A DNA stretch of 64,000 nucleotides, from IMG/VR virus record IMGVR_UViG_3300045283_000318, positions 1,399-65,398 of that record; one strand, 5' to 3'. The notes beneath the pieces are model-generated. The model made no database searches. It had not been told where the DNA came from and saw nothing but the letters and a program-made list of their open reading frames with translations. Origin of the DNA: a virus. Its lineage: Duplodnaviria > Caudoviricetes. Position numbers and translations under genes: made by a program. Of the stretch, positions 223-49,321 are shown in pieces (the first letter of the stretch is position 1; each line of letters begins with the position of its first letter).

Positions 223-523
223 GTCGTTTCTCCTTCTTGGGTTTTCCGGCGTAGGGCACCGGCCTGCGAGCCTTGAGAACTTTCTTGCGGCGCTTCCTCG
301 GCACCAAGCCGAGCTTGCGCGCCTCCCGCTCGGTCTCCTCCTGCCGGCGCTTGTTCTCGATCATGCCGCGAACAGCGATCTCGTAGGGGCCAGGGATTTC
401 CTTACGGGCGCCGAGCCGGTGGATAGTGGAGACGTCGACGGCGAGGGCGTCGGCGAGCTTCGACTTCCAGTGCTTGCGTCCGAACAGGCGGATGCCGGCG
501 ATCTTGAACTGTTCTGGACTCAT
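137..523 (-). CDS. HTH-like DNA-binding protein with basic tail
   Basis: WKSKLADALAVDVSTIHRL HTH pattern; ATGA overlap with upstream gene sets the start at 523. Confidence 0.6.
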   Translation of the reverse strand: MSPEQFKIAGIRLFGRKHWKSKLADALAVDVSTIHRLGARKEIPGPYEIAVRGMIENKRRQEETEREARKLGLVPRKRRKKVLKARRPVPYAGKPKKEKRREENSAGDRADLVELDLAGPSGRLPDAG

Positions 524-771
524 TCGACGGTCCATGGCGGCACGTTGGACCAGTGGACGATTTGATCTTCTCCGCTGTTCCAATAACGAAGGGAGCCCGA
601 TTGCGCATAGAGTCTCGGCACGAACGCTCTCCGCGTTATGTCGATAATATCTTCCATCACGGTCGGAGAAAGCATCTGCTTCACCGGCATCAGGCTGCCG
701 GCCCGGACGATCGCAGGCGCGGCGACGAGCGAGATCAAACCGGTGATGAGGGAGCGGCGGGAGAGGGTCAT
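520..771 (-). CDS. Small protein with twin-arginine-like signal and a capsid-like TRRAFVPRL segment
   Basis: MTLSRRSLITGLISLVAAPAIVRA N-terminus; translationally coupled on both sides. Confidence 0.7.
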   Translation of the reverse strand: MTLSRRSLITGLISLVAAPAIVRAGSLMPVKQMLSPTVMEDIIDITRRAFVPRLYAQSGSLRYWNSGEDQIVHWSNVPPWTVE

Positions 772-1097
772 CCGTACCTCGACGACTCGGCCGCCAGCAC
801 GATCAGGTTCCAGATGCGGTCGGTCTCGGACTGCTTGGGAAAAGCGACCTCGGCAATCGGGCAGGGCGGGGCCGCTGGAGAAACTTGCACGTCGGCAGCG
901 CGCGTCAGGAAGCGCCAGTCAAACTCGTGAACTGCCGTGACTTCAGAACCATGCTTGGCCGGGTCGATGCCGTACACCGTGACCCTCGCCTGCTCAAGCA
1001 GCCGTTGTTTGTGCTCGTTCTCAAAACTCTCCCGCCACTTGGCGCGCATCATGTTGTACGAACCTTGGATAATCTTCCGCTTGGTCTCGTTATCCAA
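768..1097 (-). CDS. Hypothetical protein with terminase-nuclease-like GIDPA motif
   Basis: ORF in coupled leftward string; AGGAGG upstream; VYGIDPAKHGSEVTAV. Confidence 0.6.
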   Translation of the reverse strand: MDNETKRKIIQGSYNMMRAKWRESFENEHKQRLLEQARVTVYGIDPAKHGSEVTAVHEFDWRFLTRAADVQVSPAAPPCPIAEVAFPKQSETDRIWNLIVLAAESSRYG

Positions 1098-1612: not shown

Positions 1613-1797
1613 ATCAACTCACATTTTTTGGCAAGCCACTCGGGCATCGTGCAGATGCTCGACTTGTCACCGACCTGCTCGACCTCACATTGCGACTTGG
1701 GAATCCAGACCTCCCGGTGCCCGTCGTTGATCAGGAAGGCGCGCGGCGTCTCCATGCGGACGAAGCAGGCGATGTCGACGAGGCCGGATTTGGACAT
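1609..1797 (-). CDS. Conserved phage hypothetical protein
   Basis: ETPRAFLI...WIPKSQ...PEWLA motif common in small phage proteins. Confidence 0.7.
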   Translation of the reverse strand: MSKSGLVDIACFVRMETPRAFLINDGHREVWIPKSQCEVEQVGDKSSICTMPEWLAKKCELI

Positions 1798-1970
1798 CAG
1801 TGATCCTCACGCGATCGGACCACGAGCGCCTGCGATGCGCGAATCGCCTTGTCCTCCAGATCCGAACGCTTGAACCAGTTGATCAGATAGAGAATCACGC
1901 CGGCAACGCAGACAGCGATGAACATGATGGCCAGGGGCCAGGATTCCGAGATGATGCGGAGAACTTCCAT
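1797..1970 (-). CDS. Small membrane protein (57 aa)
   Basis: MEVLRIISESWPLAIMFIAVCVAGVILYLINWFKR read by eye; GGAG upstream; stop/start overlap. Confidence 0.6.
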   Translation of the reverse strand: MEVLRIISESWPLAIMFIAVCVAGVILYLINWFKRSDLEDKAIRASQALVVRSREDH

Positions 1971-8743: not shown

Positions 8744-9208
8744 ATGGCCGCCCCCGTTAACCAGGAAGCCCAAGCTCTCGCCGACCTCCAGCAGGCCGTC
8801 ACCGATATCGGCACCGCGATCGCCGCCGAGATTCTCGCGCTGCAGAACGCCATGAACGCGCAGGGCGTCAACAACACGCCGGCGATCGAGGCCAGCGTCC
8901 AGAAGATCCGCGACCTGGTCGGCGCCCTCAATCAGTCCCTGACCCCGCCGGTCGTCACCCCGGCCGCGCCCACCATCACCTCGCTGTCGCCTTCGACCGG
9001 CTCAGTCAACGGCGGCGATACCGTGACCGTGGCGGGAACCGGCCTGACCGGCGCGACTGTGACCGTGGGCGGCCTGCCGGCGACCTCGGTGCGGGTGGCC
9101 TCCGACACCTCGCTCACCTTCGTTACCCCGGCCAGCGTGGCGGGCCCGGCCAATGCCGTCATCACCACGCCCAACGGGACGGTGAGTTCGACCTTCACCT
9201 ACGCCTGA
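8744..9208 (+). CDS. Coiled-coil plus IPT/TIG (Ig-like) domain protein
   Basis: APTITSLSPSTGSVNGGDTVTVAGTGL...FTY. Confidence 0.85.
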   Translation: MAAPVNQEAQALADLQQAVTDIGTAIAAEILALQNAMNAQGVNNTPAIEASVQKIRDLVGALNQSLTPPVVTPAAPTITSLSPSTGSVNGGDTVTVAGTGLTGATVTVGGLPATSVRVASDTSLTFVTPASVAGPANAVITTPNGTVSSTFTYA

Positions 9209-9389
9209 TATTCGGCAACGCGTGATCGGCTGTATCAGTTGAATCGATGAGTTCGGCGACCCACCAATCGTGCTCGCCGGGCGCATTGTGATCCTTGCAA
9301 GCAAGGTCGAACGTGTCGTAGGGGCCGTAATATAGCAGCCCTTCCACGGGGTTGCCTGCTATGACGATGAATTTAGGCATAAATCTCAC
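9195..9389 (-). CDS. Hypothetical protein
   Basis: Follows the primase; GNPVEGLLYYGPY. Confidence 0.55.
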   Translation of the reverse strand: MRFMPKFIVIAGNPVEGLLYYGPYDTFDLACKDHNAPGEHDWWVAELIDSTDTADHALPNIRRR

Positions 9390-11634
9390 CTGTTTTCTTT
9401 CGCCACATGTTTGCGGTGGCGTTTCCGATTCGCTTCTTGTGCTTCTCGTATCCCAGGTTTTTCAGGATCGCGGCCGCGCGCATGGCGTCACCGATCGTCA
9501 CCGAGTCGACGCGCCGCTGGATGAACTGGTTGTCGCATAGGACTTCGTTGACCGTCACCTCGGTTTTTTGTTTCAGTGCCAGATAGTTGGCGATCGGCTC
9601 GACCCACCCATCGCTTTGCATCCTGTCTTCCTGTTCCGCGCCCGCCGCCTTCCACAGCCGTCCTGGTAGCGCGATGGTCTCTCCGGCTGCCTCGCGGTGC
9701 GCGGCTTCGGCCCAGATCTGGTCCCGGTCCTGCTGCAAGCCTGCGAGATCGATGCGTGACGTGGTGACCGGCCAGAAGCGGCGGTTACCGGTCTGGGATT
9801 TCAGGTATTCGTCATCGTTGGTTGTGGCGAAGAACACGGTGCGGCGCGGCCGGTCGACCCGGAATCGGCCGTAGGCCGGTCTGGCGCGATCGACCTTGCG
9901 GGAGGCGAACGCCTTGACGTGCTCGATATCGGCCTTTTTCATGCCGGTCAGGTCGGCAATTTCGTACAGCCATATCCCGCACATCGCTTCCTGCTGCTCC
10001 TTGTCCTGCTTGGCGAGGATGGACTGGTCCGAGAAGTTTTCAGGCCCGGCCAGAATTTCGATGGCGGTCGACTTGCCCTTGCCTTCTCCGCTTTCGAAAA
10101 CCACGATCTGATCAAACTTGGTGCCAGGCCAGCGCACGCGACGCACCGCGGCGATCAGGGTCAGGCGCCCGATGGCGCGGTTGAGCTCGGTATCAGGGGC
10201 GCCCATGTAGCGCTGCAACCACGTGTCGAGACGGGGCTGGCCGTCCCAGGCGAGGCCGTCGAGATAGTCGAGCACGGGATCATACTGGTGCTCAAGGCAG
10301 AGCTGGGTGCAGGCATCCCGGGTGTTTTCGGTCTTGGGGTCGAAGCCGAAGCGGTGGCGGATCATCTTGCGAATCATCTGGATGGCGTCGTCGGAGAGGT
10401 CGCCGGCCCACTGGTTGATGACGTGGCCGCCGACGGTCATTTTCTCGTGAAACAGGTCTTTCCGGCATTCGATGCCGAGTGCTGCGACTGCGATGCCTGC
10501 ATTGGTGCAGGTCGACTTCGGCTTGTTCTTATCGTCCAGATCCGCAAAGAAGATCGGTTGTTGCCCCCCGAACGCCGCTGGCAGGGCTTGATGCCCGTTG
10601 GCGCGGCCATTAAGGTGGGGCTGTTGCTGGACTAATTGCGGCCCATTCTTGCCCGGGGGCGCTTCTATCGCAGGGGCGCCCCCATTCCACCCGTGCTGCT
10701 GCGCCAGATGGTACAGCGTGCCGACCGACACGCCCGACCGTCGGAAGCTGTCCCACTTGGCTTCGCAGGCCGCCTGCGCGTACTTCTCGCGGCACGTCTG
10801 GCTCCACTCGTCCCAGATCACAAAGCCGAGATCGGTGCCGTCGGGCCGCTCCCACCCCAGATCTTTGAGCGCCATGCCGACCTGGAACCAGGTTTCGTAC
10901 TGATTCGCAGGGATCGCCGACAGCGCCGAGATCAGTCGCGCCTGCTCGGCCGGTGACCATATCGGTTTAAGGCTGTCGGCTAATGCATTAACGTTGCGGG
11001 TTATTGTTTCCGGTCGGGAAAGATGCGCTGGCAATTGACCCAGATGGTCAAGACCCGTCTCCCGGGGAGTTTTATTTGCAATCTCATAGCCTTGGGACCA
11101 TTGTCTTAGCCAATCGGGTAAGGTTGCTACGGGTAACTTCTTGATCCAAGTATAGATCCGGCCGGAAGCATGGCGACTGGGCGCGGCGACGACATACCCC
11201 CCTTCACCCCGGACGTGGACCTTACCCACGGCTGAAGACCGCACTTGAGGCGAATCAGGACGTGTGAGGTAAAAAGCGTGAAAACCGTTTCCTGTCTGCG
11301 CAAGGAGTGTCGCAGGGGGTGCGCCGTGCGCCGCAACCAGCGCCTTGAACTCTTCCATGCCCTCGCGGCCATCGATGTCGATGACGACGAGGCCTGAGCC
11401 GGTTGCGATTCCGATATTGGCATCGGGCCAACGGGCCCACCATTTGCGAATTTGTTCGAGATCATCCGTTGCGTCCTTGAAACCTCTTGCGGTACGGGGA
11501 TGCTTACCCACTCCTTTACCATCGGCATGAGCCTTGCCGCAAGTGCACACGCCGTTGACGACCGTGTGCAACGGGAACACCCCCCATTTCATGCGTGCGT
11601 AGGCACACGCAGCAGCGAGCATGTCATTCGACAT
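9373..11634 (-). CDS. Primase-polymerase / PriCT-2 / VapE-type helicase
   Basis: VFPL..GKHP, NIGIATG..VIDID, RGEGGYVV; WFQVGMALK..WDEWS; Walker A SGEGKGKST, TTN, TGNRRFWP. Confidence 0.92.
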   Translation of the reverse strand: MSNDMLAAACAYARMKWGVFPLHTVVNGVCTCGKAHADGKGVGKHPRTARGFKDATDDLEQIRKWWARWPDANIGIATGSGLVVIDIDGREGMEEFKALVAAHGAPPATLLAQTGNGFHAFYLTRPDSPQVRSSAVGKVHVRGEGGYVVAAPSRHASGRIYTWIKKLPVATLPDWLRQWSQGYEIANKTPRETGLDHLGQLPAHLSRPETITRNVNALADSLKPIWSPAEQARLISALSAIPANQYETWFQVGMALKDLGWERPDGTDLGFVIWDEWSQTCREKYAQAACEAKWDSFRRSGVSVGTLYHLAQQHGWNGGAPAIEAPPGKNGPQLVQQQPHLNGRANGHQALPAAFGGQQPIFFADLDDKNKPKSTCTNAGIAVAALGIECRKDLFHEKMTVGGHVINQWAGDLSDDAIQMIRKMIRHRFGFDPKTENTRDACTQLCLEHQYDPVLDYLDGLAWDGQPRLDTWLQRYMGAPDTELNRAIGRLTLIAAVRRVRWPGTKFDQIVVFESGEGKGKSTAIEILAGPENFSDQSILAKQDKEQQEAMCGIWLYEIADLTGMKKADIEHVKAFASRKVDRARPAYGRFRVDRPRRTVFFATTNDDEYLKSQTGNRRFWPVTTSRIDLAGLQQDRDQIWAEAAHREAAGETIALPGRLWKAAGAEQEDRMQSDGWVEPIANYLALKQKTEVTVNEVLCDNQFIQRRVDSVTIGDAMRAAAILKNLGYEKHKKRIGNATANMWRKKTGEIYA

Positions 11635-44408: not shown

Positions 44409-45449
44409 TTAAAACGCCGCGCCGGCGAGGTTGTATCCATGAAAGCCGGAAACCGACTTGGCGGAAAGGATGTCGTAGCCACAGACCACGACGCCCTGCT
44501 GGCCCATCTGCCCCAGCGGCACCAGCGAGTAGAACCCGCTAAAATCGAACGCGGCGTCTTCCGACATGTACATCGACGTGTACTTGACGTTGATGCCGAA
44601 CACCTCGCCCTTCGGACAGAAGTGATCGCAGAAAATCGGCACGCCCGAAATCACAAGGTTCGGGAAGGATGACCGCACCGCGGTGTCCATCGTGTACTGC
44701 GAGCCCGGCGCCGGGTTGATCTGCTCGATCGAGATGAACGTGTTGTTGAGCGTCGCGTAGTCGCCCGGGTTCATCACGACGAAAGTGACAGCCTCGCCGC
44801 CCGCCGCGTCCGTGGTGCCGGCCAAGAGCGTCGCCATGCCGGCGCGCGTGAAGCCCGCGGCACCCTGGCTGTACGTGCCGGAGTTGAGATTGATGTACTG
44901 GCCCTTGAACGCCGAGTTGCCCGCGGCCAGCCGGTTGATGCCGCCATAGGTCGGCACGTTGGTGCCGTCGTCGAAGGCATTGTAGAACGAGTCGGGGAAG
45001 GTCGGCTGAGCCGTGTTGTTGGTGAAACTGAGGCGCGCGAAGTTCTGGCGGGTGACCGCATAGACGTCATTCATGCGGGTCTTGAGCAGCGACACCTCGC
45101 GCTCGGTCGCCTGGATGACGGACTCACCGAACGGCAGCGGCACCGGGACGACCCAGTAAGCCAGATTCCACTGACCGTTCTGGATGCCGGGGGTGATGAC
45201 CGGGCTGTTGAATCCACCGCCATAGTTGGTGAATTGCCCTTGGACCATCGAGTTGCCCTGCAACGGGATGGTAACCTGGTTCAGGCCGCCGGCGGCGCGC
45301 TGGGCGTTGCCGGTCATGTAGAACAAAGTTGGACTTCCAAAATAAATTTGGACGAACAAACGGGGAACAAAAGCCCGGCGAGTCACTGCCGACAACTCTG
45401 TGTAAAGTGATCCTGCCGCAGGCGCGACACCGAGACCCGGGAGAGGCAT
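44409..45449 (-). CDS. Major capsid protein
   Basis: 346 aa after scaffold; TYGGINR, GVPIFCDHFCP; AGGAGA RBS. Confidence 0.85.
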   Translation of the reverse strand: MPLPGLGVAPAAGSLYTELSAVTRRAFVPRLFVQIYFGSPTLFYMTGNAQRAAGGLNQVTIPLQGNSMVQGQFTNYGGGFNSPVITPGIQNGQWNLAYWVVPVPLPFGESVIQATEREVSLLKTRMNDVYAVTRQNFARLSFTNNTAQPTFPDSFYNAFDDGTNVPTYGGINRLAAGNSAFKGQYINLNSGTYSQGAAGFTRAGMATLLAGTTDAAGGEAVTFVVMNPGDYATLNNTFISIEQINPAPGSQYTMDTAVRSSFPNLVISGVPIFCDHFCPKGEVFGINVKYTSMYMSEDAAFDFSGFYSLVPLGQMGQQGVVVCGYDILSAKSVSGFHGYNLAGAAF

Positions 45450-45463
45450 TTCAATCTCCTACC

Positions 45464-46060
45464 TTAGCGGCGCGCCGCCTGCCGAAATTCAGTCAGTGCC
45501 GTCATCGCCATCCGGTCAGTGACCGAATCCACGGCACCTTTCGTGGCGATCAGCTCCTGCACGGACTTGTCGGAATCGGCGTTGACGTCGGCGAAACCCC
45601 ATGCGGACCCGGTCATGCCTGACGGCGAGGCCGGTGTCGGCGGGGGATTGCTGCGCTCGAAGATCGCAACGGCATCATCCACGTCGACGAGACCCTTGGT
45701 CTCCATCAGCTTGCGGATCGCCTCGACGCCCTCATCGGTGTAGCGGTACTCGGTCCGCAGGCGGCGGAAGCCGCGCTCCTGCTCGCCAGCAATGCGGGAG
45801 ATGCGCGCCTCGTTGCGCTCGTCGTCGCGCTCCTTCTTGATCGCGGCGAGTTCGTCGGCGAATTTCTTCTCCATGGCCTGCAGCGGCTCGGCCTGCTGCC
45901 GCTCCTGGTCCAGGGCGGGCGTGGTCGCGTTGGGATCGACCATCTTGTGGGCTTCCTCGAGGCGCTTGCGCGCCGCCGGGTTGGCCACGATCTTGCTGGC
46001 GATTCCCTGGAGGGCCGCCAGGCGGTTGTATTCGGCCTCGTCGATCTCAACCTTCGCCAT
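45464..46060 (-). CDS. Scaffolding protein
   Basis: Charged coiled coil directly upstream of the capsid gene. Confidence 0.7.
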   Translation of the reverse strand: MAKVEIDEAEYNRLAALQGIASKIVANPAARKRLEEAHKMVDPNATTPALDQERQQAEPLQAMEKKFADELAAIKKERDDERNEARISRIAGEQERGFRRLRTEYRYTDEGVEAIRKLMETKGLVDVDDAVAIFERSNPPPTPASPSGMTGSAWGFADVNADSDKSVQELIATKGAVDSVTDRMAMTALTEFRQAARR

Positions 46061-47593: not shown

Positions 47594-49321
47594 TCAATGC
47601 CGGCCGTGCCCCTTGAGCATGGCCTCGATCGCCTTGTCCTTGCCTTCAGGCGACAACTGGCCGAGCAGTTTCTCCTGCATCTGCTCGCCGGCCTTCTTGC
47701 GCTGCTTCAGCGAGGCCTTTGCAGTCTCCTTGTCGGGCACCGCGGTGTGATCGATGATGAACTCGCCGTCGACATCGCCCGCCTTGCGCAAAGCAAACAG
47801 CAATTGCGTTGCTTCGTCAGCGAAAATCGGGCTTGACGAGTGGCTGTCGACGCTGATGCGCCAGTCCTCGGGGATATCGGTCAGTGCAAACGACGTCCCC
47901 TCCATGTCCTCCGGATTGGTCCAGTATTTCCGATCCTCCTTGGCCTCCATCATCGTCATCGTGAGGTCAGCACACGACGACAGCTGCTGTTCGGTCAGCA
48001 GCGCGCGATCGCGCAAGGTCGGCGAGGCCGTTTTCATCAGCGTCTCGGCATGAGCACCGGCGCGCACACCCGCTTCGCCCTTGCCCTGCATGATTTCGGG
48101 GAATGAGCCGAGCGTGTTGATCTGCTCCTGCACATATTTAATGATCGGCAGCAATTCGGACGGGAATTTCGGGGTCAGATCCTCGGCCTTGCCGCCCTGT
48201 CCGAGGTTCACAAACCCCGCAAGCCGAAATTGCGCGTAAGACTCGTCGGTGATCGTGTTCTCGCCGCTGAACGACAGGATCTTGTCGATCTGGAGCCCGA
48301 TCAGCCGCTTCAGGTCATCACACAGCATCGCCAGGAACGCCTGCGGCTCGATCAGGTCGATCAATTCGCTCCGTCCCCAGAACCAGCCGGGCAACGGGTT
48401 CGGCTGGATCAGCCGGTACGGTTGGGTATGCTCGATTCCAAGCAAATTCGACAGCTTGAACCGGGTGATCAGAACGTCCGGCTCGACCATCTGGATGGTG
48501 ACGTAGTCATCCTCATCCTTCACCCACAATTCATGAAATTTCACGGTCGGCGCGCCGTCGACAGGGCTAATCACCGGGTAATTCGGATCGTTGCCGAGTT
48601 GGATGATGCCACCGGGCAGCGGCCGGGTTGCCTGCTGCACGCCAGTGTTGATCTGGGAGGTCGACAGCACTTGATGAAAGAAGCTGTCCGGACCACTGCC
48701 AGCGCTCTGCCCCATCGAGGCGTGCACCATGATCTGGTCGTAGAGCTTCTTGGCGTCGGGGAAGCGGTAAATGCGCTGCCAGACCTCGGGACCGGTCAGG
48801 TAGGAGGTCTCGCACAGCGCCTCCTGGTCGTCGATGTCGCTCTCGCTCTCCTTGTAGACGCCGAAATTCCACGGCATCACCAGCTTCTTCTCGTAGGAGA
48901 TGCGCTCCTTGCCCTCGGACCCCTCGACCTTGGGCCACTGCTTCAGCAGCGAGGCGCCGTACTTGAGCGATTCCTTGACTCCCTGGCCGAACAAGGTGCC
49001 GCAGCCAGACCGCTCCCAGTGCCGGGTGAGATGCTTGGCGACAACCTGTCCGCGCTTCACCTCGTTCGGCGAGTAGTCGTTGTCGAAATCACAGGCGAAC
49101 TTCAATTCGATCGGCGAGAACAGATGCGACTGCGTTCGCTCTAAGTGATAATTCATCGTGTTGATGAGCGCCTTGCCGCCGTCGGCGCGGCCGGTCTCGG
49201 CGATCTGGTTGAGCAGGCGGTAGTAGGCGCCACGCGTGGCCTGACTGACCCGACAGGTCTCGATCATCTCGTTCGCGAACGAAATCAGCTTGATCTTGTC
49301 GGTTGGGATATCGCGGATCAC
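47594..49321 (-). CDS. Portal protein
   Basis: 575 aa between terminase and head genes; FWGRSE...L...Q and G.GEAGVR pattern. Confidence 0.8.
   Translation of the reverse strand: MIRDIPTDKIKLISFANEMIETCRVSQATRGAYYRLLNQIAETGRADGGKALINTMNYHLERTQSHLFSPIELKFACDFDNDYSPNEVKRGQVVAKHLTRHWERSGCGTLFGQGVKESLKYGASLLKQWPKVEGSEGKERISYEKKLVMPWNFGVYKESESDIDDQEALCETSYLTGPEVWQRIYRFPDAKKLYDQIMVHASMGQSAGSGPDSFFHQVLSTSQINTGVQQATRPLPGGIIQLGNDPNYPVISPVDGAPTVKFHELWVKDEDDYVTIQMVEPDVLITRFKLSNLLGIEHTQPYRLIQPNPLPGWFWGRSELIDLIEPQAFLAMLCDDLKRLIGLQIDKILSFSGENTITDESYAQFRLAGFVNLGQGGKAEDLTPKFPSELLPIIKYVQEQINTLGSFPEIMQGKGEAGVRAGAHAETLMKTASPTLRDRALLTEQQLSSCADLTMTMMEAKEDRKYWTNPEDMEGTSFALTDIPEDWRISVDSHSSSPIFADEATQLLFALRKAGDVDGEFIIDHTAVPDKETAKASLKQRKKAGEQMQEKLLGQLSPEGKDKAIEAMLKGHGRH

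Follow-up and report, generated by a model that had tools for sequence, protein, structure and literature searches.

The tails of a large family of small phage proteins are short, non-random copies of segments of the capsid and portal proteins of their own phages. As far as profile searches and alignments indicate, the family is an undescribed one, in which a near-invariant leader of ~27-30 residues precedes a hypervariable tail. One member is encoded in the window, the whole stretch of DNA analysed here (64,000 nucleotides, bases 1399-65398 of a 65,398-bp virus record with a completeness rating of 100%). The leader reads as a twin-arginine (Tat) export signal, by which the tail would be exported, and the copying of capsid and portal suggests that the tails mimic the virus shell at the molecular level.

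A small gene carrying a capsid motif

The features of the small gene, all on the minus strand of the window, are the following:

520..771, minus strand: small gene of 83 aa with an export-type leader and a mosaic tail (ORF list)
679..771, minus strand: leader, residues 1-31, with twin arginine residues at 5-6 and a hydrophobic stretch of 16 residues
within 679..771, minus strand: conserved leader run from P19 to V30, PAIVRAGSLMPV
601..639, minus strand: copy of the capsid N-arm motif, residues 45-57, ITRRAFVPRLYAQ (pairwise BLASTP and codon comparison)
523..600, minus strand: C-terminal 'module B', residues 58-83, a pattern also seen in other family tails
777..780, minus strand: GAGG, ribosome-binding-site-like, 5 nt before the ATG, within the 3' end of the upstream ORF (sequence reading)

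The ORF looks coding, since it overlaps both neighbouring genes by ATGA (start at 768-771, stop at 520-523), is preceded by the GAGG and has a GC3 of 0.74, similar to that of its neighbours (0.73-0.76). The nine residues TRRAFVPRL occur at residues 46-54 of the 83-residue protein (610-636) and at residues 23-31 of the capsid protein (45357-45383). Codon comparison confirmed the initial annotation, which had noted this identity and the use of different codons at all nine positions. With the flanks included, ITRRAFVPRLYAQ and the capsid segment VTRRAFVPRLFVQ are identical at 10 of 13 residues (E 2e-5, pairwise BLASTP). Composition-preserving shuffles of the 83-residue protein, compared with the window ORFs of at least 100 aa (53,693 residues), gave a nine-residue exact match in 0 of 2000 cases; the longest match was of eight residues and occurred once. 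In line with the initial suggestion, the motif is under selection at the protein level, and it recurs in many homologues. The recoding of the codons rules out a recent duplication or gene conversion as the origin of the 9-mer. The motif also lacks the pattern of a diversity-generating retroelement target: such a target has a near-identical template repeat with changes mainly at adenines, and the 9-mer has 15 of 27 bases in common with the capsid gene, with changes at all base types.

Searches of the virus record with the family profile found one copy of the family, and the second match in this record was the capsid N-arm itself (E 0.0017). No source protein for module B was found in the window; an HMM built from 25 tails matches the ORF at 520..771 alone (E 2.7e-8), with the next match at E 0.34. 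By these alignments the window tail is a 13-residue copy of the capsid N-arm motif followed by a second recurring module. The 83-residue protein was rejected as an HK97-fold capsid in its own right (N-arm, E-loop, P and A domains), as only 13 residues are in common with the capsid, and its Atlas model has a pLDDT of 0.48. The protein has no Pfam match at E<=1, no NCBIfam match at E<=0.1 and no match among the PADLOC anti-phage defence profiles. NCBIfam gave nothing relevant for eight neighbouring small ORFs or for the ORF in the scaffold position either. Two further ORFs of the same small-gene block (1108-1284 and 1797-1970, minus strand, 58 and 57 aa) each encode one hydrophobic helix.

The window phage and its head genes

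Proteins encoded in the window include a DNA polymerase, a helicase and a primase-helicase, together with terminase-like and tailspike-like proteins. A search of the virus record for a tyrosine integrase found none, which makes a prophage-only role of the small gene unlikely in this phage. The stretch is present in one soil-metagenome DNA run, which may be the source sample, and the only named record among the family relatives is one Bradyrhizobium sp. protein. The record is circularly permuted with respect to the gene order, as synteny with a relative (L001) showed: the L001 genes downstream of the leader gene match the window from 62.9 to 56.3 kb. Read through the permutation, the small gene is followed by the far-right genes of the window, after which come those for packaging and the head, the whole series being on the minus strand. 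The gene lies in a block of small ORFs on the head-gene strand, with the capsid gene ~20 kb further downstream. One relative (G008/L079) has direct terminal repeats, and its family gene is located 4.2 kb from a genome end and reads inward.

The head genes and the capsid segments referred to below are:

44409..45449, minus strand: major capsid protein, 346 aa, HK97 fold (PHROG 9953, AlphaFold2 model, Foldseek against the PDB)
45309..45416, minus strand: capsid N-arm region, residues 12-47, the commonest copied segment, containing the 9-mer at 45357-45383
45030..45089, minus strand: capsid spine helix, residues 121-140, a helix in the model, copied by the tails of some relatives
44514..44567, minus strand: capsid C-terminal strand region, residues 295-312, copied by the tails of some relatives
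45464..46060, minus strand: ORF of 198 aa in the scaffold position between the probable portal and the capsid gene (position only)
47594..49321, minus strand: ORF of 575 aa, probable portal (gene order, upstream of the scaffold-position ORF)

The identification of the 346-residue product as the major capsid protein in the initial annotation was borne out by a match to the PHROG 9953 major head protein (E 4.8e-6) and by its AlphaFold2 model (pLDDT 77, pTM 0.71), which resembles HK97-fold capsids in the PDB (top match 7f38_A, E 1.6e-11). Among 1.84 billion cluster representatives, 190 homologues of this window-type capsid were found at E<=0.001, many of them fragments, and the capsid family is small. 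The N-arm motif is its best-conserved part and is kept even at 36% overall identity. The scaffold-position ORF has no family match. The 575-residue product has no match in Pfam or PHROG and may represent a divergent portal family.

Further resemblances were seen around the capsid gene. The spine helix AVTRQNFARLSF (45030-45089) is similar to the N-arm of the same capsid, AVTRRAFVPRLF (45357-45392), and BLASTP also aligned the small protein to the spine-helix site (E 0.089); this may be an internal repeat or chance. The extreme N-terminus of the capsid, GVAPAAGSL (45404-45430), is weakly like the end of the leader, VAAPAIVRAGSL (694-726), a likeness within a low-complexity stretch that may be coincidence. 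Two full-length capsid homologues (P0153, P0155) have ~40 additional hydrophobic residues N-terminal to the N-arm motif, and these extensions may be mis-called starts or a membrane-targeted form of the capsid.

A near-invariant leader of the twin-arginine type

Of 476 candidates of 45-146 aa from a search of 5.8 billion proteins, at least 456 are relatives at E<=0.01. Among 86 longer candidates, 9 are relatives, the longest of 207 aa, and fusion to large proteins is therefore unlikely. In an alignment of 129 members, R5, R6, P19, A20, I21 and M28 are invariant and residues 9-30 are mostly conserved at 90% or more; past about residue 31 the sequences are hypervariable. The leader occurs in 52 distinct coding versions, the codons of identical residues differ in 59% of cases, and invariant residues use up to all six of their synonymous codons. 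Saturation of the synonymous sites rules out a conserved element at the DNA level. The leader is conserved at the peptide level and is neither a DNA element nor the product of recent spread.

The initial annotation had described a twin-arginine-like signal on the basis of SRRSLI, which is present at residues 4-9. The features of such a signal hold across the family: all 129 members have the RR pair, followed by F/L and L/I, and 16 residues separate R6 from the invariant R23. In the window protein, SRRSLIT at residues 4-10 conforms to the twin-arginine motif (S/T-R-R-x-F-L-K type). Small residues after R23 (VRA/AGS) form possible signal-peptidase sites as read by eye, with the variants RVT-S and RAA-N being ambiguous. 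However, the curated profiles give the description little backing: the window protein matches neither PF10518 nor TIGR01409, and Pfam TAT_signal (PF10518) matches 7 of the 129 members at E<=0.05. Tat-signal clusters are among the Atlas look-alikes, but at scores below 0.9 these serve as leads only. A membrane anchor is less likely than export, given that the RR is invariant and the hydrophobic core short.

Comparison with the Tat signal peptides represented by PF10518 and TIGR01409 showed the same order of elements, namely RR with F/L and L/I, 16 moderately hydrophobic residues, a basic residue and then small residues at a possible signal-peptidase site. However, the family leader is near-invariant even ~8 residues beyond the likely cleavage site, is common to phages with unrelated head genes, and has as its passenger a 50-aa mosaic peptide rather than a folded enzyme. 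Such extreme conservation is odd for a plain signal peptide, and the leader may have another role. PADLOC searches of the 129 members gave one weak unrelated match and otherwise none. Three of the 129 match a PHROG 'distal tail protein'. These matches probably reflect a small domain that is also found in P22-type coat proteins, given a weak DTP-pb9 match on such coats and a family tail (L029) that matches coat residues 264-313.

The tails copy capsid and portal segments

Scanning viral contigs turned up 114 relatives, and 80 loci were retained with flanks of up to 10 kb, a length that leaves the phage's own head genes out of reach for many tails. From 62 of the loci, 67 tails were picked by the leader pattern. 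Seventeen of the 67 match an ORF of at least 200 aa in their own locus at E<0.01, compared with 15 of 1340 shuffled tails. The 17 tails point to 19 target ORFs, of which 18 were scanned with Pfam; 16 of the 18 are capsid or portal by curated cut-offs (capsid PF13252, PF11651, PF20911 and PF05065; portal PF12236 and PF04860), and two (in L040 and L047) have no Pfam family. The nineteenth (L048) stood outside the Pfam scan and is letter-identical over the aligned stretch to that of L045. Capsid and portal ORFs account for 7.6% of the residues in ORFs of at least 200 aa in these loci. When ORFs of 80-199 aa in the same loci were considered as the source, none of the 67 tails had a match. Examples of single-source tails, with identity and aligned length, are:

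L058: 70% over 54 aa (E 8e-23), N-terminus of a P22-type coat
L044, first paralogue: 75% over 36 aa, N-terminus of a PF13252 capsid
L044, second paralogue: 62% over 26 aa, N-terminus of the same PF13252 capsid
L009: 41% over 53 aa (E 7e-12), C-terminus of a GP7-type capsid
L025: 32% over 37 aa, N-terminus of a portal

Other tails are chimeric. Two (L020, L022) combine capsid and portal pieces, and a third (L052) combines portal pieces with pieces of an HK97-type capsid. One phage (L061/G006) has a P22-type coat whose N-terminal, C-terminal and internal parts are the sources of three paralogous tails. Overall, five capsid families and two portal families are copied, in strongly diverged pieces of 13-65 aa. 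When 189 unique tails were compared with 29 reference sequences of capsids and portals, 66 matched at E<1e-3; among 1890 shuffled tails, 2 did. A capsid or portal class can be assigned to 35% of the tails, and the remaining 65% are without an assignable source.

The window-type capsid is itself copied in several places. Its N-arm (about residues 12-47) is matched by the tails of many relatives (E<0.05, alignments of up to 35 aa, identity of up to 87%). Examples from the tails of some relatives are matches to the spine helix (P0023, 61% over 18 aa, E 0.02) and to the C-terminal strand region (P0048, 67% over 18 aa, E 1e-4), and in a leader-bearing protein of 86 aa (P0271) the match spans capsid residues 275-331 (E 5e-7 in a search of 1.84 billion proteins). 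The regions of this capsid copied by relatives are thus the N-arm, the spine helix at 121-138 and the C-terminal strand region at 295-331. The initial description of a copied capsid N-terminal motif is accurate for the window protein; for the family it is too narrow, since portals and other capsid segments are copied as well.

Tails follow the head-protein class of their own phage

The class of the tail equals that of the resident capsid or portal in all 22 testable contigs (21 should L045 and L048 belong to a single phage). The count comprises 14 loci with own-locus matches (L006, L009, L020, L022, L025, L029, L032, L044, L045, L048, L051, L052, L058 and L075), seven contigs searched over the whole record (G001-G004, G006, G008 and G010) and the window; the incomplete records G007 and G009 were left out. 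At the level of residues, tracking of the phage's own capsid was not seen, and a tail resembles every capsid of its class to about the same degree. The expectation that homologues would track the capsid of their own phage thus held for the class and failed for the individual sequence. This class-wide similarity, together with the conserved N-arm motif, suggests that the tails are old, diverged copies that retain family-consensus residues. The copied segment varies within one genus, and a recognisable capsid piece is absent from the tail of a close relative (G005/L043). In the one comparable pair (L001 and L002, all others being too close), dN/dS is 0.82 for the tail and 0.10 for the leader.

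Gene neighbourhood

No conserved partner gene was found within +/-3 kb in 63 loci, and the neighbours vary by phage, with methyltransferase-, terminase-, portal- or recombinase-like genes. A RiPP precursor, which would likewise have a conserved leader and a hypervariable core, is ruled out by the absence of a neighbouring modifying or processing enzyme in the 63 loci. The family gene is located directly upstream of the capsid gene in three loci (L045, L048, L058) and between the portal and capsid genes in two (L009, L020). In L020, it forms a plus-strand cassette with a helix-turn-helix-like ORF and a membrane ORF (9135-10279), placed between the minus-strand portal and scaffold/capsid genes, which looks like an inserted accessory block.

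Comparison with known systems

The internal proteins of phage T4 have a conserved N-terminal capsid-targeting peptide and a variable body. The family resembles them in its short conserved N-terminus, hypervariable body, small size and stand-alone accessory genes at variable loci. However, the conserved part of the family is export-like and its variable part copies capsid or portal; no link of the family to a prohead protease was found, and it spans phages with and without such proteases. Mimic-type counter-defence and hijack proteins include DNA mimics and satellite proteins that copy the C-terminus of a scaffold. The family would share with them the plan of a small accessory protein that resembles a macromolecule or competes for its binding site, but it copies the structural proteins of its own phage, from five capsid and two portal families, behind one common leader with an export-type signal. 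Superinfection-exclusion proteins are membrane or periplasmic blockers of DNA entry. They too are encoded by small stand-alone accessory genes, and the predicted envelope location of the family and its presumed specificity for related phages would be shared features, whereas no sequence relation between them and the family was found. To our knowledge, recognition via copies of head-protein surfaces has not been described for superinfection-exclusion proteins. None of the Tat peptides, T4 internal proteins, mimics or exclusion proteins joins a shared export leader to copies of the phage's own structural proteins, and this architecture appears to be new.

Searches for the leader sequence, capsid-mimic decoys, Tat in combination with capsid, and hypervariable capsid or portal fragments returned nothing like the family in the literature covered, which lay mostly outside subscription journals. 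DSAD1, a further example of the mimic-type counter-defence proteins, is described as acting against the tail-tube-sensing DSR2. In passages of a 2026 review, capsid proteins are listed as defence triggers and capsid-fragment decoys go unmentioned (PMC13728456).

Possible functions of the family

We tentatively propose that the family protein is an exported mimic that would compete for capsid- or portal-docking proteins and trap those of superinfecting kin phages. The leader would move the tail out of the cytoplasm by the predicted Tat export. Outside the cytoplasm, the tail would act as a molecular mimic of surface patches of the capsid or portal and would compete for proteins that normally dock on these patches. 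Plausible targets in the periplasm, named here by conjecture, would be virion-internal or ejection proteins delivered by superinfecting phages that share the capsid class, and the outcome would be the exclusion of kin phages. Three observations would follow from an exported mimic: one leader, directed at the host, is common to phages whose head genes are unrelated; tail and resident head gene are always of one class; and the tails diversify quickly. The proposal fits less well the siphophage-type members with HK97-type heads (L052). Also against it count the missing Tat-profile match of the window protein, the shortness of its capsid copy (13 residues) beside a module B of no identified source, the G005/L043 tail that has no capsid piece, the absence of residue-level tracking and the share of just 35% of tails with an assigned class. 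In more general terms, the family members may be exported 'self-epitope strings', which would either trap the ejection machinery of kin phages in the periplasm or evict cytoplasmic sensors of capsid and portal by hitchhiking on Tat; this wider formulation is also possible rather than probable.

A role as an immune decoy, as suggested in the initial annotation, or as a sink, in which the tail would imitate capsid or portal epitopes seen by host defence sensors, is doubtful. The leader would then hold the decoy with its bound sensor at the Tat translocon or the membrane, or export the complex, and sensors would be neutralised before the late proteins build up. Such a role would be in line with mimicry confined to capsid and portal, with capsid proteins being reported in the review passages as triggers of several defence systems (PMC13728456), and with tails that are hypervariable, modular and sometimes multi-epitope, with several paralogues in some phages. 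The tail dN/dS in the one pair and the stand-alone gene, which occurs in varied contexts and lies outside the head module in the window phage, also agree with it. However, a Tat-type leader would take the decoy away from cytoplasmic sensors, and a faithful copy of an epitope might activate a sensor instead of blocking it. Defence and anti-defence models match no family member apart from the single weak unrelated match among the 129, and a sensor is known for none of these uncultured phages and hosts.

It is unlikely that the protein is an assembly modulator, the other initial suggestion, or a tether, whose tail would bind the scaffolding protein, neighbouring capsid subunits or the portal, before or without export, and would time, localise or restrain procapsid assembly. 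The tails keep positions that are conserved across the N-arms of same-class capsids, and the segments copied from the window-type capsid are the N-arm, the spine helix and the long C-terminal strand, as a binding role would suggest; the five loci in which the gene directly precedes the capsid gene or lies between portal and capsid point the same way. However, most loci have the gene outside the head module and in varying contexts. The copied segment differs within one genus and one relative lacks any, which would be odd for a core role, the invariant twin arginine points to export, and the tails evolve fast. A role in conflict is favoured over one in core assembly because of the segment choice varying within a genus, the fast tails and the stand-alone gene.

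We regard as improbable the view that the active part is the leader, acting for instance on the membrane or by blocking Tat, with tails that are head-packaging tags or near-neutral filler derived from duplicated head-gene DNA. The leader is much more constrained than the tail, the large share of tails without an assignable source would suit filler, and the build resembles that of the T4 internal proteins. However, filler leaves unexplained why the pieces come exclusively from capsid and portal, a small part of the large-ORF residues, in frame and on the sense strand, and why capsid-family consensus residues are still retained when synonymous sites have become saturated. A tag would be expected to bind the capsid, not to copy it.

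Chance similarity in a non-coding or non-functional ORF, to which the missing Pfam, NCBIfam and PADLOC matches of the window protein might point, is highly improbable given the shuffle control, the peptide-level conservation in 456 relatives, the ATGA couplings, GAGG site and gene-like GC3, and the capsid N-arm as the second profile match in the phage's own record.

Implications

If the pattern holds, hundreds of uncharacterised small phage genes would gain a common logic, in which a fixed, host-directed leader is combined with a programmable tail that copies the head proteins of the same phage. The family would offer a handle on the recognition of kin and competitors, on host sensors of capsid and portal, and on the exploitation of Tat during infection. 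It would also be a natural map of the interaction surfaces of capsids and portals, as selection has kept those segments in isolation. If the reading as exported self-epitopes is true, the family would represent a new principle of conflict between phages, or between phage and host, that works by copying the phage's own structural proteins.
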